A DNA stretch of 64,000 bases from an archaeon (GCA_038046645.1 JBBSVU010000016.1:652-64651); one strand, 5' to 3'; counted from the first letter of the stretch, positions 5,221 to 62,996 are shown. Notes: a model not told the origin generated them from the letters alone. Numbers and translations are program-made.

Positions 5221-5388
5221 ATTATTATTCTATTAATTCAGTTTAAAACCTTTATTTGGGTCAAAAAGGGTTATACTTCCCTAACTGTATATTTATAAAG
5301 CATTATTAAACAAGCAAGAGAAAATAAACCAATCAGAAATACGAGCAGCAAATCATTTAAAATCCTGTCTGGCTGATTATTTCTTATT

Positions 5389-6450
5389 ATGCCACAGAAA
5401 TTAGCACTGAAAATTGCTTTAAGAGAAGCAGAGAAAATCCGTTTATTTTTATTATCGAATAACCTGCTTGATACTGCTTTTGAATTGAATAAGGATAAAA
5501 CAAACATATATTTCCCATTAAGTAGCCTGCCAAAAGGGAAAAAACAGGAATTAAGAAAGAAATTCCCAAATGCAGTTTTTGTCAAAGCAGGATTCAGAAG
5601 CAGGAATTTAAAGCCAAGGTCCCTAAAGGATGCATTGAAAGGAAAGCTTACTGGGGAGGAATTCAATTCTTTTATTTCTTCTTATGATACTGTTGGGACA
5701 ATTGCAATCCTTGAAATTCCTGAGGAATTAGAAAAAAAAGAGAAATTAATTGCAGAAACATTGCTTGATTTGCATCATAACATAAAGACTGTTTGCAAGA
5801 TTACAGGATCGCACCAAGGCCCATACCGGATTCAGCCTGTTGAAATCTTGGCAGGCCGGAAAACAACTGAAACATTGCATAAAGAAAAAGGCTGTTTATT
5901 CAAGACAGATGTTTCTAAAGCGTTTTTCTCCCCGCGCTTGTCGCACGAGAGGGAAAGAATTGCCAAGTTGATAAAAAATGGTGAAATTATTGGCGCTTTC
6001 TTTGCTGGTGTTGGCCCATACCCCATCATATTTGCAAAACATTCAAAAATGAAGAAAGCCTATGCGATTGAATTGAACAAAACGGCAGTTAAATATATGA
6101 AAGAAAACATTTCTTTGAATAATGTTGAAGGCAAGGTTGAGGCTATTTTAGGTGATGTCAATAATGAAGCAAAGAAATTCCCTAATTTTTTTGACCGTAT
6201 AGTAATGCCTCTTCCTAGGGATGCAGAGCATTTCCTTGATGCTGCTCTCTTCTCAATAAAATCCGGCGGGGTAATACATTTCTACCAGTTTGTAGATAAG
6301 GATGATCCATATTCCTTGCCATTGAAAAGAATAATGGAATCGGCAGAAAAATTCAAGAAGAAGGTGAAAATATTAAGAAAAGCAGAGGTAAGGAGCTTCT
6401 CTGCTTCAAAGATTCAGGTTGTGGTTGATTTTGAGGTTTTACATTTTTGA
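5389..6450 (+). CDS. trm5: tRNA (guanine37-N1)-methyltransferase Trm5/Taw22 family
   Basis: Met-10+ like SAM-methyltransferase signature 'FSPRLSHERERIAKLIKNGEIIGAFFAGVGPYPI', and C-terminus '...VRSFSASKIQVVVDFEV'. Confidence 0.8.
   Translation: MPQKLALKIALREAEKIRLFLLSNNLLDTAFELNKDKTNIYFPLSSLPKGKKQELRKKFPNAVFVKAGFRSRNLKPRSLKDALKGKLTGEEFNSFISSYDTVGTIAILEIPEELEKKEKLIAETLLDLHHNIKTVCKITGSHQGPYRIQPVEILAGRKTTETLHKEKGCLFKTDVSKAFFSPRLSHERERIAKLIKNGEIIGAFFAGVGPYPIIFAKHSKMKKAYAIELNKTAVKYMKENISLNNVEGKVEAILGDVNNEAKKFPNFFDRIVMPLPRDAEHFLDAALFSIKSGGVIHFYQFVDKDDPYSLPLKRIMESAEKFKKKVKILRKAEVRSFSASKIQVVVDFEVLHF
6375..6439 (+). repeat. trm5 3'-end repeat, copy 1 (functional gene end)
   Basis: Sequence 'aagaaaagcagaggtaaggagcttctctgcttcaaagattcaggttgtggttgattttgaggttt' encodes RKAEVRSFSASKIQVVVDFEV. 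Confidence 0.9.
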
Positions 6451-6473
6451 TTTCTATTGGCCTTATTTATATA

Positions 6474-7736
6474 TTATTCACTTTCTAGCAGTAACCATTT
6501 CCATATTGGAATATATTCTATTTCAATATTTTCTTTTATCTCCCTTTTTTCAATATCTTTGGTTATTATAATAGCTTTATTTGATTTCAATTCTTGTGTT
6601 ACTTTTATGGCACCACTTATATTTGGCATATTATCCTGATATTTTACCTCAATAGGCATATTATTGTGGAGAATGTCTATTTCATAATATTTTCTCCAAA
6701 AGAACTTAGCATCTAAATTTGCTGCCACAATGTTTTCTACAATAAATGGAATGTTACTATATATTCCAGCCTCATTTGATAAAAATGCAGATGCGAGACA
6801 ATGTGTTCCCAGGTAGATTTTTTTTGATTTCCTTGCCCTTGCTATTGGGCTACCGCGGTAGTTATACAAAAGCCTTATTAGGAATGATTTTTCCAAGTAG
6901 CTTACATACTTCGAGGCTGTTTGATATGTAATTTTGAACGCAGTTGCAATCTTCTGGTATTCTATTATTGCCCCGGGCTTTAATGCTAGTGTCTTAAATA
7001 TTTCATAGAGTGTTTCTGATTCTTCTATTTTATATATTTTTGGGATATCATAAAGAATTATTTTCTCTATAATCGATTTTATGTATTTGTTTATTTTTTC
7101 AAAATTTTCTTCCCAAATAAGTTCTGGAAAACCACCTTTTACAAAATAATTAGATAACTCTTTCTTGATATCCCCTGCTTGTAGGTTGATATCCTTTATT
7201 TCTATTCCGCGCAGATAAAGAAATTCCCTGAAGTTCAATGGCGTTAGTTCAAAGTCAAATAGTCTGCCTGCTAAACTTTCTTTAGTTTTCTTTATAAAAA
7301 GACTTGATGATCCACTCACAACAAATTTTATTTTTTTATCCAGATCATAATATCTTTTTAAGATTACCTGCCAGTCTGGAATATTATTTATTTCATCTAG
7401 AAAAACATAGGTTTCTTTTAATTCTGTTTTGAGTATTTCATTCTCATACACATTAAGTAGCTTGTCTATTATCTCTGGATCCTTGCCCATTATCTCATCA
7501 AATGAGAAATAAAGTATCCTTTTTGCATCGGTCTTACTTAATAGGCCCTCAATAATATGGTGCATTAGTATTGTTTTTCCAACCCTTCTCAGCCCAATAA
7601 TCGCTATAATTTGCGGATTGTCCAAATACTTTACTATCTCTTGTGTCAAAAACCTTTTTTTTAGTCCTTTAACCTTTTCAATCTCCTTTCCAATCCACCA
7701 AGGGTTGTTTTTTATTGCCTCAGCTATGAGATCCAT
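6474..7736 (-). CDS. AAA-type ATPase with DUF4143-like C-terminal domain
   Basis: Walker A 'GLRRVGKT' and Walker B-like 'YVFLDEIN'. Same architecture as the paralogue at 61728..62996, with shared C-terminus '...WKWLL'. Confidence 0.8.
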   Translation of the reverse strand: MDLIAEAIKNNPWWIGKEIEKVKGLKKRFLTQEIVKYLDNPQIIAIIGLRRVGKTILMHHIIEGLLSKTDAKRILYFSFDEIMGKDPEIIDKLLNVYENEILKTELKETYVFLDEINNIPDWQVILKRYYDLDKKIKFVVSGSSSLFIKKTKESLAGRLFDFELTPLNFREFLYLRGIEIKDINLQAGDIKKELSNYFVKGGFPELIWEENFEKINKYIKSIIEKIILYDIPKIYKIEESETLYEIFKTLALKPGAIIEYQKIATAFKITYQTASKYVSYLEKSFLIRLLYNYRGSPIARARKSKKIYLGTHCLASAFLSNEAGIYSNIPFIVENIVAANLDAKFFWRKYYEIDILHNNMPIEVKYQDNMPNISGAIKVTQELKSNKAIIITKDIEKREIKENIEIEYIPIWKWLLLESE

Positions 7737-7847
7737 ATGACCTATATCATATATTCAATTTATAAATAGTATACTTAACATACTTCCAATTTTATATTAA
7801 TTATAATTAATATATTGCTAATAACTATTAATCTAGTAACTAACATA

Positions 7848-7912
7848 AAGAAAAGCAGAGGTAAGGAGCTTCTCCGCTTCAAAAATCCAGGTTGTTATTG
7901 ATTTTGAGGTTT
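7848..7912 (+). repeat. trm5 3'-end repeat, copy 2 (orphan fragment with its own stop at 7921-7923)
   Basis: Reads RKAEVRSFSASKIQVVIDFEVCPV* in frame. It differs from copy 1 by 5 substitutions over the aligned codons, and 4 of them are synonymous. Confidence 0.85.
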
Positions 7913-7973
7913 GTCCTGTATGACTCAAAGTGCATGGCTTGCATAAGCCTTTGTTGCTTTAGCTGTAAACTAT

Positions 7974-8933
7974 TTACTTAATATATCTAAGGTAGCCTGC
8001 AAAGAAGTTCTCAAATGTTTTTTTGTATTTTTCCAGGAAAAACCTCTCAAGATTTTTTGTATATCCTCTGTGAAAATCTTCTAGCGACTTAATATAAGAA
8101 TCCCTTTGTGTTTTTCTGATAATTAATGGGGGATAATTCTCATTAACCAACATAGCTAGGGCAATGAATCTGCCTACCCTGCCGTTGCCATCTGAAAATG
8201 GGTGAATCTTTTCAAAGTTCCCGTGGAATAATGCCGACAATTGTAATGGATGGATATTTTCGGTTTTTTCATATATTTCAATTAAGGCATTCATTTCATC
8301 ATGGACTTTTTCCGGCAGTGTTAGTTCTATCTGTGACCCAATTATCTCATTTGGAAATTGCTTATACCCTACCCTAGTGTCAATGTTTTTCATCAGCATT
8401 TTGTGCATTTTTATTATATCCTTCTCAGATATTTTAAACTTTTTTTTGAGGATTCTCTCCAGTACCTCTCTTGAATTTTTTGTTTCATATATCTCCCTTA
8501 AATCCTTGCCTTCTAATGACTTGCCTTCAAACATAATAATAGCAACATCTTTCAGTGTTAAGGAACTGCCTTCAATTGCATTTGATTCATATGTGAAGTT
8601 TGCAGTAAATCTGTCAAAAACATCCCTGAGCTGCTCTTTGGAAAAATTTTTTAATAATTCGCCGTAGTCTACCTTAATTCCTTCAATCTTTTTAATCTGG
8701 TCTTCTGAGAAAATTTCATCATTTTTATACATATTTACTGCATATGAAGCATTTGCCATCTTTTGCTTCTCAATAAAAAAAGATTTATTTTCTTTTGCCA
8801 ATTCATCAATGCTCTTATTTTTTGCATCAACAAGCTTCTGGAGTGAAATAACCTTGCCATTAGGCAAGCGTATCGATTTCATCAAATATGTGTATTCTTT
8901 GCCTTTAACTTTCTTAACTGATAAATAGGTCAT
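7974..8933 (-). CDS. Fic-family protein (AMPylase-type), class II-like with internal inhibitory motif
   Basis: Fic motif 'HPFSDGNGRVGR'. Upstream 'SNAIEG' fits the (S/T)xxxE(G/N) inhibitory-helix motif. Confidence 0.85.
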   Translation of the reverse strand: MTYLSVKKVKGKEYTYLMKSIRLPNGKVISLQKLVDAKNKSIDELAKENKSFFIEKQKMANASYAVNMYKNDEIFSEDQIKKIEGIKVDYGELLKNFSKEQLRDVFDRFTANFTYESNAIEGSSLTLKDVAIIMFEGKSLEGKDLREIYETKNSREVLERILKKKFKISEKDIIKMHKMLMKNIDTRVGYKQFPNEIIGSQIELTLPEKVHDEMNALIEIYEKTENIHPLQLSALFHGNFEKIHPFSDGNGRVGRFIALAMLVNENYPPLIIRKTQRDSYIKSLEDFHRGYTKNLERFFLEKYKKTFENFFAGYLRYIK

Positions 8934-8941
8934 AATATATA

Positions 8942-8986
8942 GTTAACGTTACAATTTAAAAGCATATCATTTTATGTAACGTTAAC
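8942..8986 (-). promoter_or_regulatory. Putative operator: 12-bp perfect inverted repeat flanking the Fic TATA-like box
   Basis: gttaacgttaca (8942-8953) and tgtaacgttaac (8975-8986). The 21-nt spacer contains 'tttaaaa' about 25 nt from the Fic ATG (8933). Confidence 0.45.
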
Positions 8987-9024
8987 CTGCTTGTTCTGTC
9001 CTATTTTCTCTATTGCTAATTAGT

Positions 9025-9075
9025 AAAAAAGCAGAGGTAAGGAGTTTCTCTGCTTCAAAAATTCAGGTTGTGATT
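9025..9075 (+). repeat. trm5 3'-end repeat, copy 3 (orphan fragment with its own stop at 9091-9093)
   Basis: Reads KKAEVRSFSASKIQVVIYFTLY* in frame. Differences from copy 1 in the shared part are agc>agt and aag>aaa (both synonymous) and gtt>att (V>I). Confidence 0.8.
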
Positions 9076-9128
9076 TATTTTACTTTGTATTAATTTTTTT
9101 TGATTACTCTGCTTTTTTATTAATTTTT

Positions 9129-12100
9129 TCAGTCCGTAGAGAGTTTATTTTCTCCACCAAAGTCAGGGTCTTTAGTAAGTTTCATCGTTTCCCAATTTAT
9201 TTCACAATACCTTTCTTTTTTGCCTGTAGCAATATAGCAGGAATACCCTGTACAGCATTGGCTATTTGCTGTGCATTGTTCATTATTACCTTTACATGTA
9301 ATCTCCATTCCTGCAAAGTCCTCATCTTTTTCAGGATCTTTAATTTTCATATCTTCGCCAAAGTCAGGATCATTTTCAGTAGGTATCTTCATTCCTGCAA
9401 AGTCCTCATCTTTTTCAGGATCTGGTTCAATAGATTGGCAATTTCCTTCAGCATCGCAACTCTGTAAAGGCCCTGCAGATTCTAAGTCCGTTGTAGCTGC
9501 AGGTGCATTCCCTTTTTCAATGTCCTGCATTAATTGTTCTGAATTCCATACAAGGCTAAATTCAGCTTCAGAAGGAATGACGCAAACGTGTTTTGTTTGT
9601 ATTAAGTCAAGGTGTTCTTTCAGGCTATTGACTTTCTTTGGTTCAGCTGTTATTAGTTTTACAATGCCGCCTTGTGGATCTTTTCCCTGTGCTTCACTTT
9701 TTTCTTTGCTGCCCCAAGATTGTGAGCTTAGGTATAACATCTCTTTTGCGCAGGTTATCTCTAACTTAGATGGAAAATTATTCTCCCAATCTGGCATGAA
9801 CAATACTGTTTTATGCATTCCCTGTTCCCCTTTCTTTAAATGTAAAAATGGTGCTTCAAAGCTTTCACAAGTTAATCCCTTGAACATGCCCTTGTCCTGT
9901 GATTTATTCAACCTAACTGTTTTTCCGCTGGGTGAAAGCCAATTTATAAATCCAGGGACATAATCCGCAGGCAATGGGCTATTGGCTGTTCCTAATAACC
10001 TTAATGCAATATCCTGCTTATTTGTATTTATGTTTAGCAATGTAGGAATAAATCTTTTCATCCTTATCACAAAGTCATTGCCCTCTAGCAGGTTTGTTAT
10101 CTTAATTAAGTCGCTTCCAGCAAATAGCGGAATACGGCTGTTATCAAAGGAACTGGCTCCATCTATCAGATTATTTACTGATTTATTGTCTTTTCCAGTT
10201 GCTTTTTTTAAATTAACAGTTGGGGTAAGAGGCACAAGCTGGCTTTCATCTATTCCAGTTCCGTATCCTTCTCTTTTATTGCCCATTTCTGTTCCTACAA
10301 ATCCGTCAAAAGGTATCAGCAATAAAGGATTCTTTGAATAGGATTTTTTCCCTGCATTGTCAATCTCGCTCAAATTATTGATTTTTCCATAGTATAAATC
10401 AATTACTGCATTTTCACCCCTAGTTATTTTGTTGTCCTTTGTTTTTTCGACCGCGAAATTAATCAACCTTAAATAGGTTCCACTTTCTATTGCATTCTTA
10501 ACCTCTTGGCTGAAATCTAGGTAATTATATGTTTTCTCTGCAGCCACTTTCTTTTGGTATGTTGAATAAACTTCTAAATCTATGTTATATGTGTTTTTGA
10601 AATCTGCCTTGAAATCAGCAGCTTCAAAATTATCGCCTATAAGATAAACTGAATTAAGCGGATTTATGGTTGCCCCATTAATTACTAAATCATCTGCATC
10701 AGCCCATAATTTGTTTTTTCCATTATCGCTTTGAAACTCAATATTGCTGGCATTCTTTGCAACAGTTATCTCTACAATATTTTTATTTAATTGTTCAAAG
10801 AAGCCTTTCCAGGGTGAGCCATAATCCTTTGTGCTGCAATTGCCACTTGTTGTGTTATTTTCAGTTATTGTTATACCCCCCACTGTTATATCATAGTTAT
10901 TTGGGTCCATTGAATAGCATCCGTTTGCAGCCCTTGTCTTGTTAATTGTAGACAATTGTAATGTTATTTCATAGAAATCATCCATTGACATTACAAATAT
11001 GCCTTCCTTGTAATCTGTGCTGAATAACCCTAAATCAATGAATTGCATTACAATTTTATTATTGCTTTTTTTAATGTCTTTTTTAATTATTATCAATAAA
11101 TCATTTTCGTTGTTATTTCCGCCATAACATTTATTTGCGTAATATTGCAATCTGCCTATGTTTAATGAGGGTATTGCAACGCTTGTAGTTGGTTTGGCAT
11201 ATTCTTTTTCATATTTATTACTGCTAAAGTTTCTGACCTGTTCCCAGTCAATATCCTCTATTACCTCTCTGCTTACATCACTAATTGTTTCTTTAATTGC
11301 TTCTGTACCTTTATATGCTGCTACCTTATCATATGTTAGGGCACATGAATTATTTTCACTTAATACTGCGGTTCCTTTTACATAATAGAGCCTTTTTTCA
11401 TTGGTTTTATGGTTCTGAATTATAACAGTGTTCTTCACAATAGGCACCAATTCAAGCAGAGTATCCATTCCTGTGCAATCTAAAGCCTCACAAATTGCTT
11501 TTACATGCTCTGCAGGAATCTTGCTTAAATTAGCCTGAAGTTCCTTTTGTTTTTCAATTGTGCTTAACATGAATTGTGCTGCATCACAGAAATAGTTGTT
11601 GCAAGTATCTGCATTTATATTCTTAACATCCCAATCCCACAATATTCTGTCTAACCCATATTTCTGATAAGCATCTTGGCCGGTTTCTGCAGTCTCCATG
11701 CCTGCACAGAACAAAGCGCTTTTTTTGACTGCTGGTTCACTGGCTGCAGCTGCAGCTTTAACCACAGCTTCTTTCCTTTCATCTAAATCAGCTTTTGCTT
11801 CTTCTTTCACTTCTTTCTTTATAATGCATTTGAAATCCTTGCATTCTTTTTTATCATCTGCACAGTCCTCATTAGTTATGCACTGCCCCTTTTTGCACAT
11901 TTTTTCATAACATACTTCGTCTGTTTTACATTCTGCTTTTTCTGTACAGCTGCCTCTTTTTTTGCAAAAATTATTTACACAGTTTTCGCCTGCAGGGCAA
12001 CAATTGTTGTTTGAACATTGAGTTCCCGGAGCTACTAAACAATATTTTTTCCCGCCTTCTTTGAATGGTTCGCAGATGTTTGATGCACATTGAGCTGCTG

Positions 12101-13415
12101 TTAAACAATTAGTTCCACATTGTAATTTTGGCACACATTTCTGTTTAGAACAGAAGTATCCTGCCTCACACAATTCATCCTTTAAGCATTCTACACACTT
12201 CAGTTTTGCACTGCAAACCCCAACCTCTATTGTTTCTGATTGTGTGCCCCAATATTGGCAACCATCATTCTCTTTTTTGCCTTCACATGGCTCTTTTGGT
12301 TTTTCTTTAGCTTTTTCAATACAACTGCCATTATCACATTTTTCAGTTTCCTTACAATGTGCATCCCCCAAACAAAGCACGCATTGCAGTTCAGCATCGC
12401 AGTATCCAGTAATTTCTAGTTCTTTATTTATTTCACAAACATTTCCTGCGCTGACACAAGGGCTTGCGGTTTTTTCCCCTAAATATCCTGCCTGTGCAAG
12501 CCAATCATCAGCAAGTGCTTCTGATACATAAGTATTAAGCAAAAGAAGCGTTGATGGCTGCCCTGATTTTTGATAAGCAGTTTCATCCAACCTTTTGAAA
12601 AACATTCCCATGACATAATCATATTTTTTGCAGAATAGCCTGCTTTTTCTGATTATGGTTTGTTCCTCAGGGTATTTGAATTCAGTGTCATTCCTTACCA
12701 AAAGCCCGTCATATACTATGCCTTCTCCATTTCTATTCCAGCAATTAAACATATACCTTACCGAATCTTCATAATTTGGGCCAGCCATATCCTTATTTTC
12801 TTCAACCTCGCTCTTGTCTGGTTTTGTTTTTAAATAATCATAAAACGGGATTGTGAAATTTATTGCTGTATCAGTGCCATTTTTATTTACTGCGGCAGTC
12901 ATTGAATATTGTGAAACAGATGCTTTTACAAACCTCAATACTTTATCTTTTGGGTTTGTTTCATCAGCAGCACAAGCCAGCATCTTTATTTCTTCCTTTT
13001 TCTTTCCTTTTACTTCAGCAGCATGCTCTGTTTTGTACTGTTCAATAAGGCTTTCTACATAGGGATCATACTTTCCGCCACTTTGGGCTCCCATTTCGCA
13101 AAAATCAAATATAATTTCCTGTACCTTCTGTTGATTTAGCGTTAACAATACCAAGGAAAGTTCCTTGCTAGCCTTGTCTGTAATTGATATTTTAACCGTG
13201 TTATCAATTTCATATCCTAAATTGCTTGGATTGACAATTGAATAGGTAGGCAATAACCTGCTCTCTCCTTCTACTAATTGGCCAAATTCAGTAGGATATG
13301 TATTGCCCGCATTTACGTTAACTAATGCTTTTATCTGCCCTCTGCCGTAAACATCCCCAATAAATACACTAAAAAATAGTACTAACAATAACCCAATCCA
13401 AACCTTATTCTTCAT
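9129..13415 (-). CDS. Giant secreted cysteine-rich surface protein (1428 aa), paralogue of 53291..57223
   Basis: Signal peptide 'MKNKVWIGLLLVLFFSVFIGDVYG'. Cys-rich EGF-like tract at about aa 330-545. A ~720-aa core is co-linear with the other giant protein ('FCAGMETAETGQDAYQKYGLDRILWDWD', 'NKREGYGT', 'LVWNSEQ'). Confidence 0.8.
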   Translation of the reverse strand: MKNKVWIGLLLVLFFSVFIGDVYGRGQIKALVNVNAGNTYPTEFGQLVEGESRLLPTYSIVNPSNLGYEIDNTVKISITDKASKELSLVLLTLNQQKVQEIIFDFCEMGAQSGGKYDPYVESLIEQYKTEHAAEVKGKKKEEIKMLACAADETNPKDKVLRFVKASVSQYSMTAAVNKNGTDTAINFTIPFYDYLKTKPDKSEVEENKDMAGPNYEDSVRYMFNCWNRNGEGIVYDGLLVRNDTEFKYPEEQTIIRKSRLFCKKYDYVMGMFFKRLDETAYQKSGQPSTLLLLNTYVSEALADDWLAQAGYLGEKTASPCVSAGNVCEINKELEITGYCDAELQCVLCLGDAHCKETEKCDNGSCIEKAKEKPKEPCEGKKENDGCQYWGTQSETIEVGVCSAKLKCVECLKDELCEAGYFCSKQKCVPKLQCGTNCLTAAQCASNICEPFKEGGKKYCLVAPGTQCSNNNCCPAGENCVNNFCKKRGSCTEKAECKTDEVCYEKMCKKGQCITNEDCADDKKECKDFKCIIKKEVKEEAKADLDERKEAVVKAAAAASEPAVKKSALFCAGMETAETGQDAYQKYGLDRILWDWDVKNINADTCNNYFCDAAQFMLSTIEKQKELQANLSKIPAEHVKAICEALDCTGMDTLLELVPIVKNTVIIQNHKTNEKRLYYVKGTAVLSENNSCALTYDKVAAYKGTEAIKETISDVSREVIEDIDWEQVRNFSSNKYEKEYAKPTTSVAIPSLNIGRLQYYANKCYGGNNNENDLLIIIKKDIKKSNNKIVMQFIDLGLFSTDYKEGIFVMSMDDFYEITLQLSTINKTRAANGCYSMDPNNYDITVGGITITENNTTSGNCSTKDYGSPWKGFFEQLNKNIVEITVAKNASNIEFQSDNGKNKLWADADDLVINGATINPLNSVYLIGDNFEAADFKADFKNTYNIDLEVYSTYQKKVAAEKTYNYLDFSQEVKNAIESGTYLRLINFAVEKTKDNKITRGENAVIDLYYGKINNLSEIDNAGKKSYSKNPLLLIPFDGFVGTEMGNKREGYGTGIDESQLVPLTPTVNLKKATGKDNKSVNNLIDGASSFDNSRIPLFAGSDLIKITNLLEGNDFVIRMKRFIPTLLNINTNKQDIALRLLGTANSPLPADYVPGFINWLSPSGKTVRLNKSQDKGMFKGLTCESFEAPFLHLKKGEQGMHKTVLFMPDWENNFPSKLEITCAKEMLYLSSQSWGSKEKSEAQGKDPQGGIVKLITAEPKKVNSLKEHLDLIQTKHVCVIPSEAEFSLVWNSEQLMQDIEKGNAPAATTDLESAGPLQSCDAEGNCQSIEPDPEKDEDFAGMKIPTENDPDFGEDMKIKDPEKDEDFAGMEITCKGNNEQCTANSQCCTGYSCYIATGKKERYCEINWETMKLTKDPDFGGENKLSTD

Positions 13416-19844: not shown

Positions 19845-20387
19845 TTATTTATTTTCCCTATTTAACCTTGCCTTTTCTTTCCTTAACCATTCTTCAAATC
19901 TTTCATCATCCTTTATTATTTCTTCAAGAATTCCACTTACTATTTCATAATGTTTTTTGTTTTTCCCATCAAGCCTGAAATAAAGAGGCCCTTGCGAACT
20001 GGTTGAACCGCCAGAGCCAACCTTTAATATTAGGCTTATTGGCTTTGGATTTTCCAGAAAAGCACTCATTGCTTCTTTCGGTTTCAGGTATTCCGGATGT
20101 TTCTCAAGGTTTTTTATTGGCAAGCATACCTGGACAGAATCAGTTGCCCTCACATTTAGGAATCTTTTTAGCCCAGCATTCCTGCTTATGCCCACATTCC
20201 ATTTTTTATTAGACCTTTCATAATGCCCAGCATATTTTATTGGGCAATTGTAATGCATGTGCATATCTTGGGGCGATGCACCAAACCTGTTTCTCTTGAG
20301 TATCTGCCATACAATGCTCCTCTGAGCAGGCCCATGGTCTGCTTTCCGTCTTTCCCTTTTCATTCTAAATGGTTTTTTTGTAGGCAT
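19845..20387 (-). CDS. Hypothetical protein, paralogue A (basic N-terminus)
   Basis: Shares 'MPT.KKP..KRERRK..GP..RS', 'LNVR.TD.V.VC.PI.N..K.P.YL' and 'FRLDG' with 20445..20927. Confidence 0.55.
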   Translation of the reverse strand: MPTKKPFRMKRERRKADHGPAQRSIVWQILKRNRFGASPQDMHMHYNCPIKYAGHYERSNKKWNVGISRNAGLKRFLNVRATDSVQVCLPIKNLEKHPEYLKPKEAMSAFLENPKPISLILKVGSGGSTSSQGPLYFRLDGKNKKHYEIVSGILEEIIKDDERFEEWLRKEKARLNRENK

Positions 20388-20444: not shown

Positions 20445-20927
20445 TCACGTTTTTTTCATATCCCTTTGCGCTAATGTTTCAAGCACTTTGCCCACTATTT
20501 CAGGGTGCTTTGCCCCATCCAACCTAAAGAAAAGCGTTCCAAAAAAATCATTGCCCGGAACCTTTACAAGCAGGGTTATTTCTTCTTTATTTTCCCTAAA
20601 AATTTCCAAAGCTTTTTCAGACTCTAAATATGCCGGATTCTTTCCAATATTATATATTGGTGAGCATACCTCAACTTTATCAGTTTCCCTTACGTTTAGC
20701 ACTTCTTTTAATTCATCCAACCCTTTGAGATTATATTTGCTTGGCGCTCTCGCAAATATCCCGGAAAAATGTGTTGCACTGCTTTTTTTTGTAAGTACAC
20801 TTTGATATGGTGCGCCAAACCTGGCTTTTTTTGAAAAAAATCTGATAAGTTTGCTTCTTGAATTAGGCCCGTAGTTTACTTTCCTTCTTTCCCTTTTTCT
20901 TGCAACAGGTTTTTTTATAGTAGGCAT
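20445..20927 (-). CDS. Hypothetical protein, paralogue B (basic N-terminus)
   Basis: Tandem paralogue of 19845..20387. No known motif recognised. Confidence 0.55.
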   Translation of the reverse strand: MPTIKKPVARKRERRKVNYGPNSRSKLIRFFSKKARFGAPYQSVLTKKSSATHFSGIFARAPSKYNLKGLDELKEVLNVRETDKVEVCSPIYNIGKNPAYLESEKALEIFRENKEEITLLVKVPGNDFFGTLFFRLDGAKHPEIVGKVLETLAQRDMKKT

Positions 20928-37988: not shown

Positions 37989-38195
37989 CTATCTTACAAG
38001 TTCTTTTATTTTTTCTTCAATATGCTTCAGTTTATTCTCTTCAAATTCATCAGCCTTTATTACAATAGTCAGGGTTAATCCTGAACCAAATGGCCCAATT
38101 AAATATTCGTGGTTTTTTTCCAAGAAGCCGCCCCTATGGTTAGCTGCAAAAGGGCCTTCCCCATTTCCTGAGATGTGTGCTTCTAGTATTCTCAT
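37989..38195 (-). CDS. Small hypothetical protein (68 aa)
   Basis: Overlaps the upstream membrane gene by 4 nt (ATGA). No motif recognised. Confidence 0.45.
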   Translation of the reverse strand: MRILEAHISGNGEGPFAANHRGGFLEKNHEYLIGPFGSGLTLTIVIKADEFEENKLKHIEEKIKELVR

Positions 38196-38641
38196 ATGAT
38201 CTTCACCACATCCCCTAATATAAAATTGAATAAAATTAACACAGTGAAAAACCAGCCTTCTTCAACCCAAATTAATTTATCCTTAAATTTAGGGTCATCC
38301 TCTGCAAATTTCATTAATGAAATTTCACCAAGATAATACAGTGAAAGAAATGCTGCAACATAGGTTACCATTCCAGAAACATTTGTCATGTCCATTGTAA
38401 ACCAAGGGACCAGCATCAATATGACAAATCTGCTTGCTACTTTCTTGCCTTCATAGAAGATATGCGCTAAAGCAAAGAATGCAAAACCCCAGCCTAAATT
38501 GTTTAATATGAATTCAGTGATCCAAGCACTGTCAAATTGCAAAAGATGATATGTAAATTCAACTATCATACATATATTGCGTGTTTGGCAGATATAATCC
38601 CATTTAGCATATTTTGAGCTAAAACTACAATTTTTAAACAA
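38192..38641 (-). CDS. Membrane protein (about 4 TM)
   Basis: Hydrophobic segments present. The real start may be the internal Met of 'MIVEFTY'. Confidence 0.5.
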   Translation of the reverse strand: MFKNCSFSSKYAKWDYICQTRNICMIVEFTYHLLQFDSAWITEFILNNLGWGFAFFALAHIFYEGKKVASRFVILMLVPWFTMDMTNVSGMVTYVAAFLSLYYLGEISLMKFAEDDPKFKDKLIWVEEGWFFTVLILFNFILGDVVKII

Positions 38642-38664
38642 ATTGTTACATATTTAGCTTATAT

Positions 38665-39759
38665 ATGTCTGAAAAATTGAGCCAAACTAATGAAAAATCA
38701 AGTAATGATTTACTTGCGCTCGATGCTTATGATCGAAAATTGATTTATTATTATTCAAAAAACTGCCGTTTGCCATTAAATAAATTAGCAAAGCTTGTTG
38801 GCAGGTCTAAAGATACAATAAAATATAGGATTGAGCGCTTTAAAAAAGAAGGAATATTGCAAGGAAGTACTATTGTAATAGACCCAATCCTTTTAGGCCA
38901 TGAATTCTTTCAGGTTTATCTTAAATTTCAAAATCTGACTTTAGAAAAAGAACTGGATATTGTAACTCATCTTTCAAATTTTCGGGCAAATAATGTTGTG
39001 ATGAAAACATCCGGTTTGTGGGATATGTATATTTTGCTTGATGCTGGGCACGCAATGCAGTTCGGTGATTTTTTGCAGCACATAAGGAATTACTGCGGAG
39101 ATTATCTGAAAGATTTTTTATTCTTGATTGAATCAAAAGAGTATTTGTTTACAAATATCCCAAAAATAATCTTCAAGGATTTGAAAATTGATAATTTTAT
39201 CTATGAAAAGGAAGATTCTTCTTTTCAGAAACAATTGCAGTACATAGGAACAGAATTTCAGCACGCAGAATCAGTCAAGGTAAATGATAAAGAACTGCAA
39301 TTATTTAAGGAAATGGACGATAACATTCAGATTGAACTTAAGGACCTTGCATCAAAATTAAGTCTGTCCTTATTCCAAACAAAATCCGTGATAAAATCCC
39401 TGATTGGAAAAAAAGCTCTTAATGCATTCTGGCCTACTTTTAATCTTTCAAGATTAGGGCTTGAATATTATATTGTTTTCATCCAGACGAATAATATTTC
39501 AAAAGAACTAGACAAAAAACTGAAAGAATATTTTATGAATCAACTGAATCTGATGCGCGCAGTTCGCACAATCGGGAATTATGACATTACTTTGTTTGTT
39601 GCTGTTTACAATCTTCCCGAGCTTTATGGAATAATGAAGGATTTAAGGTTAAAATTCCCGGATTTAATCAAAAATTATGAGTCATTTATTGTAGAAGAAG
39701 ATATTCATTTCAAGGCAGGTACAACATTCTGTGCTGTTGAAAAAGGTGAAGTTTTATGA
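38665..39759 (+). CDS. Tandem-duplicated Lrp/AsnC-like regulator
   Basis: Two HTH units ('DAYDRKLIYYYSKNCRLPLNKLAKLVGRSKDTIKYRIERFKKEGIL' and 'ELQLFKEMDDN..IELKDLASKLSLSLFQTKSVIKSL'), each followed by a RAM-like segment. Confidence 0.6.
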   Translation: MSEKLSQTNEKSSNDLLALDAYDRKLIYYYSKNCRLPLNKLAKLVGRSKDTIKYRIERFKKEGILQGSTIVIDPILLGHEFFQVYLKFQNLTLEKELDIVTHLSNFRANNVVMKTSGLWDMYILLDAGHAMQFGDFLQHIRNYCGDYLKDFLFLIESKEYLFTNIPKIIFKDLKIDNFIYEKEDSSFQKQLQYIGTEFQHAESVKVNDKELQLFKEMDDNIQIELKDLASKLSLSLFQTKSVIKSLIGKKALNAFWPTFNLSRLGLEYYIVFIQTNNISKELDKKLKEYFMNQLNLMRAVRTIGNYDITLFVAVYNLPELYGIMKDLRLKFPDLIKNYESFIVEEDIHFKAGTTFCAVEKGEVL

Positions 39760-39763
39760 TTGC

Positions 39764-40042
39764 TCAATCTTTACTTTGTTTGTACCATCTCTCATATTGT
39801 TTGTGATTTCCAACAAAATGTATTTCCTTTACTTTTTCTTTTTCATTTATTTTAATAACAATACGATATTGCCCTGCTTCAATAACATAAAAGTCTAATC
39901 CGTGCTTAAGATGCCTGGTTTTTGTTTCTTCTTTCTGTTTTTGTATTTTGTTCCAGATTGATTCTCTTGCTGTTTTATCCATCTTTGCAAAGTATATGTC
40001 CCAATCATGGAAAAAAGATATTTTGTATCCCATAGGGGTCAC
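39764..40042 (-). CDS. RelE/ParE-family toxin
   Basis: 'FAKMDKTARESIWNKI' and 'YVIEAGQYRIVIKINEKEKVKEIHFVGNHKQYERW'. Confidence 0.7.
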   Translation of the reverse strand: MTPMGYKISFFHDWDIYFAKMDKTARESIWNKIQKQKEETKTRHLKHGLDFYVIEAGQYRIVIKINEKEKVKEIHFVGNHKQYERWYKQSKD

Positions 40043-40288
40043 TTACTTGAATCCATACTTTTTCTTTACTTCTTCTTCTGTCAGATATTTTTGGTTTTTC
40101 TTTTTCATTTGTTTGTCCTGTTTTAAGATTTTCCTTGCAACCAGATCCAGTTCTGATGCACTTAAATCATCCAGGATATGATATTCTTTTCCCAATTCTA
40201 AAATTCCTGCCCTTATTGCTTCGGTTTTTGTCTTGAAATAACCTTTTGCAATTAAGATGCTGAGAACATCTTCAGGGACACCTTCCAT
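40043..40288 (-). CDS. RHH-type antitoxin
   Basis: 'YFKTKTEAIRAGILELG'. Directly abuts the toxin start. Confidence 0.6.
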   Translation of the reverse strand: MEGVPEDVLSILIAKGYFKTKTEAIRAGILELGKEYHILDDLSASELDLVARKILKQDKQMKKKNQKYLTEEEVKKKYGFK

Positions 40289-40319
40289 TTTGATTAGAGT
40301 TTCTATATTCCCACCTTAT

Positions 40320-40338
40320 TGTATATTTAGTATACAAA
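40320..40338. promoter_or_regulatory. Palindrome upstream of the antitoxin-toxin pair
   Basis: ttgtata-tttag-tatacaa, about 32 nt from ATG 40288. Confidence 0.35.
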
Positions 40339-40420
40339 AAATATATAAATAATACGGATTTGCCTGATAAGTACTCGTCTAAATCCTATATATACTTTTC
40401 CCTCAGCTATTACCATATAT

Positions 40421-40541
40421 CACTCACAACGTTTGGCTTGCAACGCCCATGTATTTATCTATAAATAAAGTGATATTTACAAATTTAATACTGTGATTTG
40501 CAAGCCTATGCCTAGAGGCATAGGTTCCCAAACGTTGTGAC
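40421..40541 (+). repeat. Structured palindromic element E2 (121 nt)
   Basis: 13-bp outer stem 40424-40436/40528-40540. 7-bp inner stem 40437-40443/40498-40504. 8-bp tetraloop hairpin 40505-40524. Same 'cac...ttc-stem-c' frame as E1. Confidence 0.65.
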
Positions 40542-40565
40542 ATAATTATTTGAAGGGGGATTATT

Positions 40566-41624
40566 TTGGCACAAAAAAAGAAACCTGAAAAAGTTGCACA
40601 TAAGAAAATTGACACGCAAATAAAGACATTGAGGAAAGGCCTTGAGAAAGAAGTGTCTTTTGCTAAAAAAGTCAGCAAGGCAACAAAAGAGCATGATGAG
40701 GAGCTTGAGGTATTGAAAAACGAGCTTGAAAAATTGAAAGCCAAGAAAAAGCGAAGTTATCTTTCTGATTATAACAAGTTTATGCGCTCCCAGATAAAAT
40801 CAGGCAAGACATTTAAGCAAGCTGTTGCTTTATGGAAGAAAAAGAAGAAAGATGATGAAAGGAAATCAAAAGGTTCAAAAAGAACAGCTTATAATATTTT
40901 CATTTCTTCCCAGCTTAAGCAGGGAAAAACAATGAAGCAGGCGATTGCAGCATGGAATGATTTCAAGAGTGGAAAAGTAAAGAAAAGGATTGTTTACAAG
41001 AGAATTTTATCAAAACCAAAGGTGGTATACAGAAACAAGGTAGTATATCGTAATAGAAATAAGCTTGTTTACAGAAACAAAATAGTGCCAAAAATAGTTT
41101 ATAGGAACAGAGTTGTAAAAACCGATGTTCCAAAAGTAATCCGCCGTAAGAAAACTATAAAACCGGTTGTTCCAAAAGTAGTTCATCGAAAAAGGATAAT
41201 TAAACCAGTGGAAAAACCAGAACCAAAACATGTTTCAAGGATTAGGGTTGTGAGAAGAAATGTCTTCCCTACCGAAGAATTGGAAAGGGTTTTTCTGAAG
41301 TACAAGCCGGAAACGCACATAGTTGAAAAGGAAGTGTTCCCAGCTGAAAAAATAAAAGAAGTGCTTGATTCAGTAATGCACTCAAAGCCTGAAACAGTTG
41401 TGCATTATGCAGATGATGTTTCAGATGAAGAAACCGCTTTAAGGATGCTTGAGATATATCTTAAAGAAATAGCTTGGTCAAACCATAAAGATAAGCTGGA
41501 TGTTGACCAAATTATAAACACATATTTCTATGCGCTTTCAAGGATAAAAAGAAAGGATATAGAAATGCATAAAATTTTAGAAGCTCTGAATAAGGAAAGG
41601 ATTAGAAAGGTTGAGGGTGAATGA
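40566..41624 (+). CDS. Lysine-rich repeat protein (possible nucleic-acid-binding)
   Basis: TTG start 7 nt after 'GGGGGA'. Duplicated '(S/T)(D/A)YN.F..SQ.K.GKT.KQA.A.W' motif. '(V/I)VYRN(K/R)' occurs five times, and 'VPKV..RK..IKPV' twice. Confidence 0.6.
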   Translation: MAQKKKPEKVAHKKIDTQIKTLRKGLEKEVSFAKKVSKATKEHDEELEVLKNELEKLKAKKKRSYLSDYNKFMRSQIKSGKTFKQAVALWKKKKKDDERKSKGSKRTAYNIFISSQLKQGKTMKQAIAAWNDFKSGKVKKRIVYKRILSKPKVVYRNKVVYRNRNKLVYRNKIVPKIVYRNRVVKTDVPKVIRRKKTIKPVVPKVVHRKRIIKPVEKPEPKHVSRIRVVRRNVFPTEELERVFLKYKPETHIVEKEVFPAEKIKEVLDSVMHSKPETVVHYADDVSDEETALRMLEIYLKEIAWSNHKDKLDVDQIINTYFYALSRIKRKDIEMHKILEALNKERIRKVEGE

Positions 41625-60971: not shown

Positions 60972-61727
60972 ATGGAACTTTCTGAGCTAAAAGAAATAGG
61001 GTTAAGCGACGGCGAAGTAAAGGTTTATACTGCTGTTTTGGAATTAGGCATAGCATCAATTAACAAGATTCATGAAAAGGTTGGCATTGAGCGGAGAAAC
61101 ATCTATGATATTCTCAATAAACTGATTGAAAAAGGCCTTGTTAGCTATACCCTCGAAAAACAGGTTAAGGTGTATCAGTGTACATATCCAGGCAAAATAG
61201 CCGAGGAGATAAAGAAAAAGCAACTCTCCTTAAAAGAGCTTGAAAAGAAAATTCCGCAGGTTAAAAGTTTATTTAATGCTTCAAAGCCAGAGATAAGGGC
61301 AGAGGTTTATAGAGGAAATGAGGGCATAAAGGCACTTTTAGATGAGGTTATTGAATATAAAGAATCTTTTTGGCTTGGCGGGAACAGCTTTGAGGAATAT
61401 ACTGCAGTGCCAAAAAGCTTGGAGATTTGGTGGGAACACTGGATGAAAAGAAGAGTAGAAAATAAACATGTGATGCATGATTTGGTAAGTTATGGAACAC
61501 ATTTGCGAGGTTTAGAACCCTGGAAAAAAGAAAAGCATAAGAAGAATTATTATAAGTATTGTGCCTTGCCAAAAGGCATGCGTTCCCCGCTTGTAATAAT
61601 CCTATTTGGAACTAAAGTTGCCCAAATTATCTGGGGAAAGCAATCATTTGCCTTTGTGTTGGAATCTGAAAAAGTCAGAGACAGTTTTATGAAGTACTTT
61701 AATTATTTCTGGAAAAAGCCTTGGTAA
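60972..61727 (+). CDS. TrmB-family transcriptional regulator
   Basis: 'LKEIGLSDGEVKVYTAVLELGIASINKIHEKVGIERRNIYDILNKLIEKGLVSY'. Confidence 0.75.
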   Translation: MELSELKEIGLSDGEVKVYTAVLELGIASINKIHEKVGIERRNIYDILNKLIEKGLVSYTLEKQVKVYQCTYPGKIAEEIKKKQLSLKELEKKIPQVKSLFNASKPEIRAEVYRGNEGIKALLDEVIEYKESFWLGGNSFEEYTAVPKSLEIWWEHWMKRRVENKHVMHDLVSYGTHLRGLEPWKKEKHKKNYYKYCALPKGMRSPLVIILFGTKVAQIIWGKQSFAFVLESEKVRDSFMKYFNYFWKKPW

Positions 61728-62996
61728 CTATACTTTGTCTTCTTCTATGAGCCACTTCCAGAGTTTTTTATATGTTATCCTTTTCCCAGCTATATTTTCC
61801 TTAGCCTCATAATCTCTTGTAATTACAATCAATTCCTTCTTTTTCCCATCTAAGCCAAATTCTTTTGCAGCTTCAATCAATGCTTTAAGTTCACGATCTT
61901 TTGTTCTTTTATTGTCCAAAGCATATGTGACCTGCATGAGTTTCTTGACAGTTAACCCCTGTCTTATCACGAAATCTACTTCAAGATTCCCAGCTGATTT
62001 ATAATATGAAATTTGTCCTAAAGGGTTGAGTTTTCTTCTAAGTTGAATAAATACAGCATTTTCATACAGTTTTCCTAAATCTTTTTTTCCTCTTGATGCA
62101 TAAAAGAATCCAGTATCGCCAAAGTAAACTTTTCTTGGGTAGAGTGATTCGTCTTTTATTTTTGTTGAGAAAACTGGCACAAAAAAAGAAAGATAAGCAG
62201 TTTCAAATAACTGTTCCAGCTCAAGCAGTGTGCTTTTGCTTATTTTATGGCCTATGCTTTTCATGACATTCTCTGATTTAGTTGCCGAAAAAAACGTTGT
62301 CCCTATAAGTTGTGCTGAAAAATCAGATACTGTTTTTAGCGGAACTGTTGAAAGAGCAGCTATGTCCAAAGAAATTATGGAATTCATATATTCTTGGATA
62401 GTACTAACCTTGTTTTCTGATAAAGCAATTTCAGGGAATCCTCCATATACTAAAAATTCTTCTAAAGCATGCTCTACCTTTCCTATTTCCCTAGTTGTTT
62501 CTGGCAATTTTATATTTTTAAATTCTAGAAATTCTTTAAATGAAAGCGGAAAAAGTTCAAAGTATGAAATTCTGCCGCGCAATGCTTTTGGCGGAAATCT
62601 TGATAATTTATTGAGTGATGAGGTTGTTATTATGTGTACATTTTTCATTTCATTTATTCTATGTAGCCAGTGTTCCCAGTCCTTTGTAGTAGTAACCTCA
62701 TCTAACAACAGCCATTCTGCATCTGGTGTTTGTTTAAGAATTGTATCTAATGCTTGAGGAATCTGCAACCTATTATCTTCAAGATTTGCATACGAGGATT
62801 TTTTCCCAAGCGATATTAATTTTTTATATGTAAGCATTAGAACAGAGCTTTTTCCAGCCCTTCTTATTCCAGTAATTGACACAATCCTATTTTTAGATTC
62901 GGCTATTGCTTTATCTATGTTGAATATTCTGTCTTTAAGGGGCTTATTGATTGCAGTGTTTTGCCATTCAATAAGAGTATCTTTTATATCGTCCAT
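61728..62996 (-). CDS. AAA-type ATPase with DUF4143-like domain (paralogue of 6474..7736)
   Basis: Walker A 'GIRRAGKS' and Walker B 'WLLLDEV'. Its stop codon directly abuts the trmB-like stop (61727/61728). Confidence 0.8.
   Translation of the reverse strand: MDDIKDTLIEWQNTAINKPLKDRIFNIDKAIAESKNRIVSITGIRRAGKSSVLMLTYKKLISLGKKSSYANLEDNRLQIPQALDTILKQTPDAEWLLLDEVTTTKDWEHWLHRINEMKNVHIITTSSLNKLSRFPPKALRGRISYFELFPLSFKEFLEFKNIKLPETTREIGKVEHALEEFLVYGGFPEIALSENKVSTIQEYMNSIISLDIAALSTVPLKTVSDFSAQLIGTTFFSATKSENVMKSIGHKISKSTLLELEQLFETAYLSFFVPVFSTKIKDESLYPRKVYFGDTGFFYASRGKKDLGKLYENAVFIQLRRKLNPLGQISYYKSAGNLEVDFVIRQGLTVKKLMQVTYALDNKRTKDRELKALIEAAKEFGLDGKKKELIVITRDYEAKENIAGKRITYKKLWKWLIEEDKV

Follow-up and report, generated by a model that had tools for sequence, protein, structure and literature searches.

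In-frame copies of the trm5 3′ end flank two single-gene cassettes in an archaeal genome and probably record tandem site-specific integration

The locus described here lies in a stretch of 64,000 nt from an archaeal genome (GCA_038046645.1 JBBSVU010000016.1:652-64651), which we refer to as the window and from the start of which all coordinates are counted. Its central gene, as identified by gene calls combined with a Pfam scan of window open reading frames (ORFs) of at least 150 aa, is trm5 (5389-6450, plus strand), which encodes a tRNA m1G37 methyltransferase of the TRM5/TYW2 family (PF02475, 4.5e-50; PF25133; PF18093). A repeat search revealed that the last ~25 codons of this gene belong to a family of three direct repeats of 82 nt, all on the plus strand, between which two cassettes are lodged, each with a single gene. 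Copy 1 (6369-6450; attL-like, that is, resembling a left attachment site), used as the reference, lies inside trm5, is the present functional 3′ end of the gene and translates as RKAEVRSFSASKIQVVVDFEVLHF followed by a stop codon. Copy 2 (7842-7923) is 85% identical to copy 1, sits where the attR of cassette 1 and the attL of cassette 2 would coincide, and translates as RKAEVRSFSASKIQVVIDFEVCPV plus stop. Copy 3 (9018-9099; the distal, attR-like copy) is 76% identical to copy 1 and translates as KKAEVRSFSASKIQVVIYFTLY, closed by a pseudo-stop at 9091-9093. The family is confined to these three members. A scan of the 64 kb with a 32-nt core pattern, allowing up to 3 mismatches, returned three matches, which are the three copies (0 expected from 100 shuffles), and an nhmmer profile of the repeat detected no fourth copy in the window.

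The way in which the copies differ is informative. Over 6375-6439, copies 1 and 2 are distinguished by five differences, four of them at third codon positions and the fifth a V/I exchange, a third-position bias that points to divergence under coding constraint. When all three copies are compared over 6375-6424, third positions account for 6 of the 8 variable sites (binomial P about 0.02), and a hand count that leaves out 6375 and 6377, at the edge of homology of copy 3, gives 5 of 6 with a similar P. Copies 1 and 2 also end alike, their tails DFEVLHF and DFEVCPV being of one common type, DFEV plus three residues with the stop at the same position; the tail of copy 3 reads ...VVIYFTLY before its stop. 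Copy 2, just upstream of which there is an in-frame TAA, is a non-expressed trm5 3′ end. The left starts of the two extra copies are at most about 8 nt apart relative to the repeat (7842 versus ~9024-9026), which is expected for related attachment (att) sites and not for random fragments. The segment concerned holds the residues R335, Q343, V345, and D347, invariant in an alignment of 28 Trm5 homologues, so that an insertion without a replacement end would truncate Trm5. The trm5 ORF is nevertheless intact, closed by the DFEVLHF tail of copy 1.

Each interval between the copies consists of one ORF and little else. Cassette 1 (6451-7841) carries, on the minus strand and flanked by 23 nt and 105 nt of noncoding DNA, an AAA_14 + DUF4143 ATPase gene (6474-7736; Pfam 1.2e-33 and 6e-16; PADLOC PDC-S01 2.6e-62), the product of which has an intact Walker A motif (GLRRVGKT) and an intact Walker B motif (FLDE). 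Cassette 2 (7924-9017) carries, also on the minus strand, a Fic gene (7974-8933; Pfam Fic 3e-19; PADLOC PDC-S04 3.8e-43 and SoFic 3.6e-28), in whose product a canonical active-site motif, HPFSDGNGRVGR, and an inhibitory-helix-like motif, SNAIEG, can be read. Both cargos are thus candidates for single-gene defense or toxin functions, as judged from their matches to PADLOC family hidden Markov models. Both genes run antisense to trm5 and have AT-rich, TATA-like upstream regions of their own, recognized by eye; a promoter and terminator scan returned counts at shuffle level, the tool being bacterial and uninformative for an archaeon. Upstream of the Fic gene, a perfect 12-bp inverted repeat (GTTAACGTTACA / TGTAACGTTAAC, 8942-8953 / 8975-8986, 21 nt apart) flanks an AT-rich TATA-like stretch and looks like an operator for a dimeric regulator. 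In composition, cassette 1 (GC 0.299) is poorer in GC than any 1300-nt window taken from the 64 kb, where the mean is 0.360, and cassette 2 (GC 0.327) is at the 9th percentile. The best homologue of the DUF4143 ATPase is 63% identical, and its family is scattered over bacteria of the Candidate Phyla Radiation (CPR), Altiarchaeota, and DPANN; the homologues of the Fic protein, up to 76% identical, come mostly from Diapherotrites-like archaea. The low GC of cassette 1 and the patchy distribution of the cargo families suggest a foreign origin. An initial annotation of this DNA had described in-frame recurrences of the trm5 3′ end with their own stops, mainly synonymous differences between them and one minus-strand gene, DUF4143 ATPase or Fic, in each interval, and this description holds throughout, including the translations.

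That annotation had also allowed for the three-copy layout being an artefact of collapsed or chimeric reads, an explanation that is now effectively refuted. The same structure occurs in an ENA assembly (99.94% identical over 7.9 kb, with the differences outside the repeats) and in a Logan assembly, the product of another assembler (100% identical over 4 kb), in which the contig is unbranched and continuous across the three copies. Moreover, no exact stretch longer than ~27 nt is shared between copies (copies 1 and 2 have 5 mismatches in 65 nt), so that they cannot confuse a k=31 graph. Since the two assemblies come from other assemblers but from runs or assemblies of the same groundwater study, their agreement excludes assembler error, not a feature shared at the population level.

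The nearest Trm5 and Fic homologues suggest that this groundwater organism is a DPANN archaeon near Iainarchaeota/Diapherotrites. Trm5 proteins more than 60% identical to that of the window occur in two lineages only, P0002 (85%) and P0003 (83%), with orthologues at loci L020 and L021. In both, trm5 is directly followed by the orthologue of the large minus-strand gene (9129-13415, encoding a Cys-rich protein of 1428 aa with no Pfam hit) that is the conserved right-hand neighbor of the array in the window; this arrangement is seen on one 47-kb contig and on eight contigs from several samples. As determined by blastn, the site is unoccupied in L020 and in L021-L026, with synteny kept to its left and right, and relative to this empty site the window has additional DNA at ~6451-9100. 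The DUF4143 ATPase gene and the Fic gene are both absent from the L020-L026 loci. The unoccupied trm5 site that the insertion proposed in the initial annotation implies therefore exists in both nearest lineages. A second copy of the gene's own 3′ end was found neither in these two close relatives nor in 17 distant trm5 loci from GTDB species representatives; a weak nhmmer match in L007 lies inside an MCM gene and was judged a chance match.

The native ends of the relatives allow the three copies to be told apart. Trm5 ends in ...VVIDFAVY in L020 and in ...VVIDFAVDSIF in L021. Copy 3 aligns codon for codon with the L020 native end and has the same stop position, but has a Tyr at the position of Asp347, a residue invariant in the 28 Trm5 homologues. 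The L020-type stop and the Tyr at this position indicate that copy 3 is the original chromosomal end, displaced, decaying and, to judge from its sequence, no longer under coding constraint. The DFEV-type tails of copies 1 and 2, in contrast, are unlike the native ends of the relatives, and these two copies look like imported replacement ends that evolved as coding sequence. Such an evolution is understandable, since a replacement end serves as the real end of the gene whenever its element is integrated.

Each copy also has an inverted repeat at its left edge, AAGCAGAG-N11-CTCTGCTT (6380-6406, 7853-7879, and 9029-9055). In the minus-strand RNA of each copy, this pairs into a 9-bp hairpin with a U-run behind it, immediately downstream of a minus-strand gene, with folding energies of -11.3, -13.4, and -11.5 kcal/mol and z-scores of -2.9, -1.6, and -3.3 for copies 1, 2, and 3, respectively; on the plus strand, the stem is broken in copy 2. 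The hairpin is present in the window, in L020, and in L021, where a double change (GCGGAG/CTCCGC) keeps the pairing, and is absent from more distant trm5 genes. Recombinases act at the anticodon or T stem-loops of tRNA genes and, by analogy, the inverted repeat may be a symmetric recombination core. The hairpin and U-run may also mark the end of convergent minus-strand transcripts, in which case each incoming cassette would be provided with a 3′ end signal. The two readings are compatible with each other. Copy 3 is in addition bracketed by a distinct 19-nt inverted repeat (9018-9036 / 9107-9125, 18/19 complementary), which extends 8-9 nt into the non-trm5 left flank and the right arm of which comes to within 3 nt of the stop of the large gene. 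L020 and L021 contain nothing comparable, and this second inverted repeat may be left over from another recombination event or may form an RNA structure.

Taken as a whole, the evidence is firm for a horizontal insertion at the 3′ end of trm5 that brought in replacement ends, and the best explanation for the array is probably tandem site-specific integration at this end, which has left two integrase-less elements. Site-specific integration by one family of elements is the most economical reading of three features, namely, the near-coincident left boundaries, the coding-type divergence, and the shared DFEV tail. As we picture it, two small foreign elements would have entered the trm5 3′ end, either successively or together as a ready-made tandem, by recombination of the chromosomal site with its match on a circular element. 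Each would have carried its own version of the last ~25 trm5 codons, and a crossover at the left edge of the repeat, near the inverted repeat described above, would have let the copy of the element complete the gene while the previous end was pushed downstream. Copy 1 would then be the end delivered by the DUF4143 cassette (element D), copy 2 the end delivered by the Fic cassette (element F), and copy 3 the original chromosomal end. The resulting layout (trm5, element D end, DUF4143, element F end, Fic, native end) would be the same in either order of arrival. Renewed movement would be possible only if a cognate integrase acted in trans or if the repeats recombined with one another as homologous sequences. 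The initial annotation had likewise proposed two site-specific integrations, and its replacement ends and displaced end stand, on the strength of the empty sites and of the L020-like copy 3 with its D347Y change. What does not stand at that strength is the role of a site-specific recombinase, the involvement of which we infer, as we do the location of the crossover and the notion that the elements were once larger or were mobilized in trans.

Several observations weigh against site-specific integration. No integrase, recombinase, or transposase domain was detected by Pfam in the scanned ORFs of at least 150 aa across the 64 kb, a scan that omitted about ten such ORFs overlapping longer genes and four with housekeeping-annotated L020 orthologues; to this extent, the claim that the window holds no integrase is borne out. 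Neither is there space for an integrase pseudogene, since the noncoding stretches in the cassettes measure only 23-105 nt. IMG/VR and JGI metagenomes yielded neither a free nor an integrase-linked copy of the att sequence; there, a pattern scan with back-translated EVRSFSASK gave 0 viral matches in IMG/VR and a single match in JGI metagenomes, which is a relative's own trm5. The same collections yielded no autonomous relative with a trm5-type att, and trm5 was not found on viral contigs with either a single-protein query or a 28-sequence profile. The regions adjoining the repeats share nothing between the two cassettes and thus contain no common arm-type sites. If the cassettes are deletion remnants of larger elements, two clean reductions to one gene plus promoter are an unexplained coincidence. 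Finally, only one lineage is occupied, and neither alternative cassettes nor an empty-site allele occurs in the population sampled. The Trm5 90%-identity cluster of the window has a single member, and the Logan contig is unbranched across the array. The term integration hotspot, used in the initial annotation, is hence not warranted, with one occupied lineage and no extra copies in the 17 distant loci or the two close relatives.

The cargo genes have a history of their own. In every context examined, their homologues form a solitary insert amid different housekeeping genes. Repeats comparable to those of the trm5 array, the presence of which would have favored site-specific integration, are absent from ten such contexts (the test took in three DUF4143 homologues at four loci, along with four Fic homologues and the second DUF4143 gene of the window). 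We therefore rejected the cargo gene itself as the mobile unit, because its homologues elsewhere are without flanking repeats. A casposon or another transposon was likewise rejected, since the cassette ends have no terminal inverted repeats (TIRs), no transposase domain was found in the scanned ORFs, and the duplication is 65-80 nt long. The cargo families are mobile in evolution and patchily spread, and scars are preserved only at the trm5 array. Near-identical cassettes are missing even from a collection of 5.8 billion proteins, in which the best matches are the 63% and 76% identical homologues.

Three other explanations have to be weighed against site-specific integration. The lack of an integrase in the scanned ORFs would be natural if host homologous recombination, without any dedicated recombinase, had inserted by a Campbell-type single crossover a circle composed of ~70-80 nt of a diverged trm5 end and one gene, a circle that might come from the looping out of a similar array in a donor cell. 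The crossover would duplicate the homologous segment, the cassettes would need no common arm-type sequence outside the repeat, and indeed have none, and the repeats are long (65-80 nt) and 85-92% identical, which may suffice for archaeal homologous recombination. However, 5 mismatches in 65 nt leave exact stretches of no more than ~27 nt, and random circularization would not give extra copies that start within about 8 nt of each other. The origin of the first circle joining a trm5 end to a cargo gene would also be unexplained. We consider this route unlikely. The hairpin invites another reading, in which the repeats are a reused functional module, for example, a terminator for convergent minus-strand genes, copied locally with or without gene gain. 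It is true that the 9-bp minus-strand hairpin and its U-run lie directly downstream of a minus-strand gene in every copy and that L021 keeps the stem through a double change. A terminator, however, needs ~30 nt, but the copies run 40-50 nt further, to in-frame stops and with third-position-biased differences. Archaeal termination generally needs oligo-T only, which also counts against a terminator module, and no copying mechanism is on offer. The chances of this explanation being correct are very slim.

More far-reaching is the idea of an active, integron-like cassette system, in which single-gene cassettes with att hairpins are excised from and inserted at the trm5 end by an integrase supplied in trans, its gene lying in another part of the genome or on a helper element. 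The cassettes are minimal and clean, consisting of one gene, its upstream region, and one repeat with spacers of 23-105 nt, an inverted repeat is conserved at the edge of each repeat, and both cargos are of the defense type according to PADLOC. In spite of this, the array has neither an intI nor an attI beside it, its repeats do not resemble attC sites, and each cassette is antisense and has an upstream region of its own. The absence of a near-identical cassette from the 5.8-billion-protein collection (63% and 76% at best), the ten contexts of cargo homologues without such repeats, and the lack of variation at the site in the sampled population speak against it as well, and we regard an active system as unsupported and quite improbable. 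It is similarly doubtful, although it would be consequential, that a clade of DPANN archaea still exchanges one-gene defense cassettes equipped with a mimic of the trm5 end and a hairpin core, with a recombinase provided in trans by another part of the genome, by a virus or plasmid, or even by the cell that hosts the symbiont. If true, this exchange would be an archaeal functional analogue of integrons with an essential protein gene as its platform. Tandem site-specific integration by elements that are now integrase-less is in our view the reading that best accommodates the locus.

A number of features around the array, in the rest of the window, and in the contexts of cargo homologues deserve mention. 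The C-terminal part of the large Cys-rich protein is encoded by DNA with short tandem repeats, of 39 nt (9301-9339 and 9385-9423) and 30 nt (9144-9173 and 9345-9374), and window positions ~9100-9405, corresponding to the last ~90 codons of this gene and a short 3′ flank, give no DNA-level alignment with the L020 orthologue. The other, left side of trm5 is variable too (window 5221-5388 versus L020 8534-9843 and L021 796-1491). Between the DUF63 gene and trm5, L020 has PemK, RHH, and PIN genes, and L021-L024 have RHH_8 and PIN, toxin-antitoxin genes that are not there in the window. No repeats flanking these genes were found in the relatives, for which reason we rejected them as the same kind of insert as the cassettes and regard them as variation of another sort. 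In the population of the window itself, two Logan contigs have an end or a start at 5311-5333, a hint that strains vary at this point.

The window also contains a second AAA_14 + DUF4143 gene (61728-62996, minus strand), 25% identical to the first and without flanking direct repeats, which is placed stop-to-stop with a TrmB-like regulator gene (60972-61727) at zero intergenic distance. On an unrelated archaeal contig (L031), a Ham1-like gene has a second copy of its 3′ end (33 nt, 85% identity; 8705-8737 / 8873-8905, and also 8750-8780 / 8821-8851) at a distance of 168 nt downstream, with a DUF4143 homologue about 1 kb upstream. By analogy with the "microCIMEs" of streptococci (CIME, cis-mobilizable element), this may be a gene-less att remnant. 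Elsewhere in the window, two adjacent paralogous genes on the minus strand (19845-20387 and 20445-20927), encoding proteins of 180 and 160 aa with no Pfam hit, have in common a 69-nt stretch of 74% identity near their 5′ ends. The region 38665-41624, of low GC (0.321 for 38001-40000), encodes a 364-aa protein in which only an N-terminal winged helix-turn-helix (wHTH) domain is recognizable and a 352-aa protein without a family match, and may be another acquired region.

How does the trm5 array compare with known systems? Replacement of a gene end by an element is familiar from lambdoid phage 21 and e14 in the icd gene of E. coli, where a diverged, mostly synonymous replacement 3′ end keeps the gene functional and a displaced pseudo-end remains. 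Unlike the units at trm5, these are complete, integrase-bearing prophages of a bacterium that go back to a single integration. Among archaea, 14 of 68 integrated elements in Thaumarchaeota occupy 3′-distal regions of protein genes, and stop codons supplied by the element and tandem reuse of one site are on record as well (PMC6563490). The statement in the initial annotation that such a pattern would be unusual for an archaeon is thus too strong, integration at protein-gene 3′ ends and tandem arrays being known in this domain. The thaumarchaeotal elements resemble the trm5 array in their archaeal host, protein-gene 3′ end, element-supplied stop, site reuse, and validation by empty sites; however, they measure 2.6-98 kb and by definition have an integrase, or a casposase with TIRs and short target-site duplications (TSDs) (PMC6563490), whereas the trm5 units are 1.1-1.4 kb long, without a recombinase, and are found at a different target, trm5, in a DPANN host.

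The layering of the array is reminiscent of the tycheposons of Prochlorococcus, where degenerate elements at tRNA genes are arrayed together with partial copies of the target (bioRxiv 10.1101/2020.12.28.424599). There, too, successive integrations push older elements outward and leave partial copies of the target between units, remnants without a functional integrase reside in a streamlined genome, and defense functions are among the cargo. Unlike the trm5 array, tycheposons target a tRNA gene, their fragmented integrases are visible, and their activity has been shown experimentally. Integrons share with the trm5 array single-gene cassettes placed between recombination-site repeats and a recombinase located outside the cassettes, and the initial annotation had invoked an integron-like logic. 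This comparison fails for every defining feature that could be tested. Integrons have intI, attI, and a promoter reading into the array, whereas here the array begins with trm5, and the scanned ORFs of the window include no integrase. Their attC sites are imperfect palindromes of variable sequence and conserved structure, whereas the trm5 repeats are direct coding copies, 76-85% identical, with a stem of 8-9 bp. Their cassettes are mostly promoterless and co-oriented, whereas those at trm5 are antisense and have their own TATA-like upstream regions, as seen by eye.

What is new at this locus is that the host belongs to DPANN, that the target is trm5, and that the units are minimal and integrase-less. 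Integration at protein-gene 3′ ends, replacement ends, and tandem arrays were already established, and current concepts need no change. Knowledge of gene acquisition in the tiny genomes of DPANN is scarce, and the locus is of value as a clean fossil of the horizontal gain of two defense- or toxin-type genes, in which the target, the displaced original end, and the imported replacement ends can all be identified. In addition, the ~70-nt trm5-end sequence with its inverted repeat can guide searches of this clade for the integrase or mobile element responsible. The closest counterparts of the trm5 units are the CIMEs of Streptococcus, which are 1.2-13 kb long, bear cargo, and form tandem series behind fda, rpsI, and rpmG, at the 3′ ends of these genes (PMC7563491). 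Like the trm5 units, streptococcal CIMEs are att-flanked, ~1.2 kb and larger, and carry cargo but no integrase (PMC7563491), and they are lined up one after another at the 3′ end of a protein gene with a housekeeping role, the reading frame of which stays intact. They differ in their bacterial host and in belonging to known parent families of integrative and conjugative (ICE) or integrative and mobilizable (IME) elements, whereas neither an autonomous parent nor an integrase was found for the trm5 units; nor is there a functional element in tandem with the latter, and conjugative mobilization is, as far as is known, not applicable to them. Being att-flanked and devoid of recombination or transfer genes, the trm5 cassettes are in their present state equivalent to CIMEs, and it seems that integrase-less units of the CIME type, described until now from streptococci, also have a counterpart in archaea.

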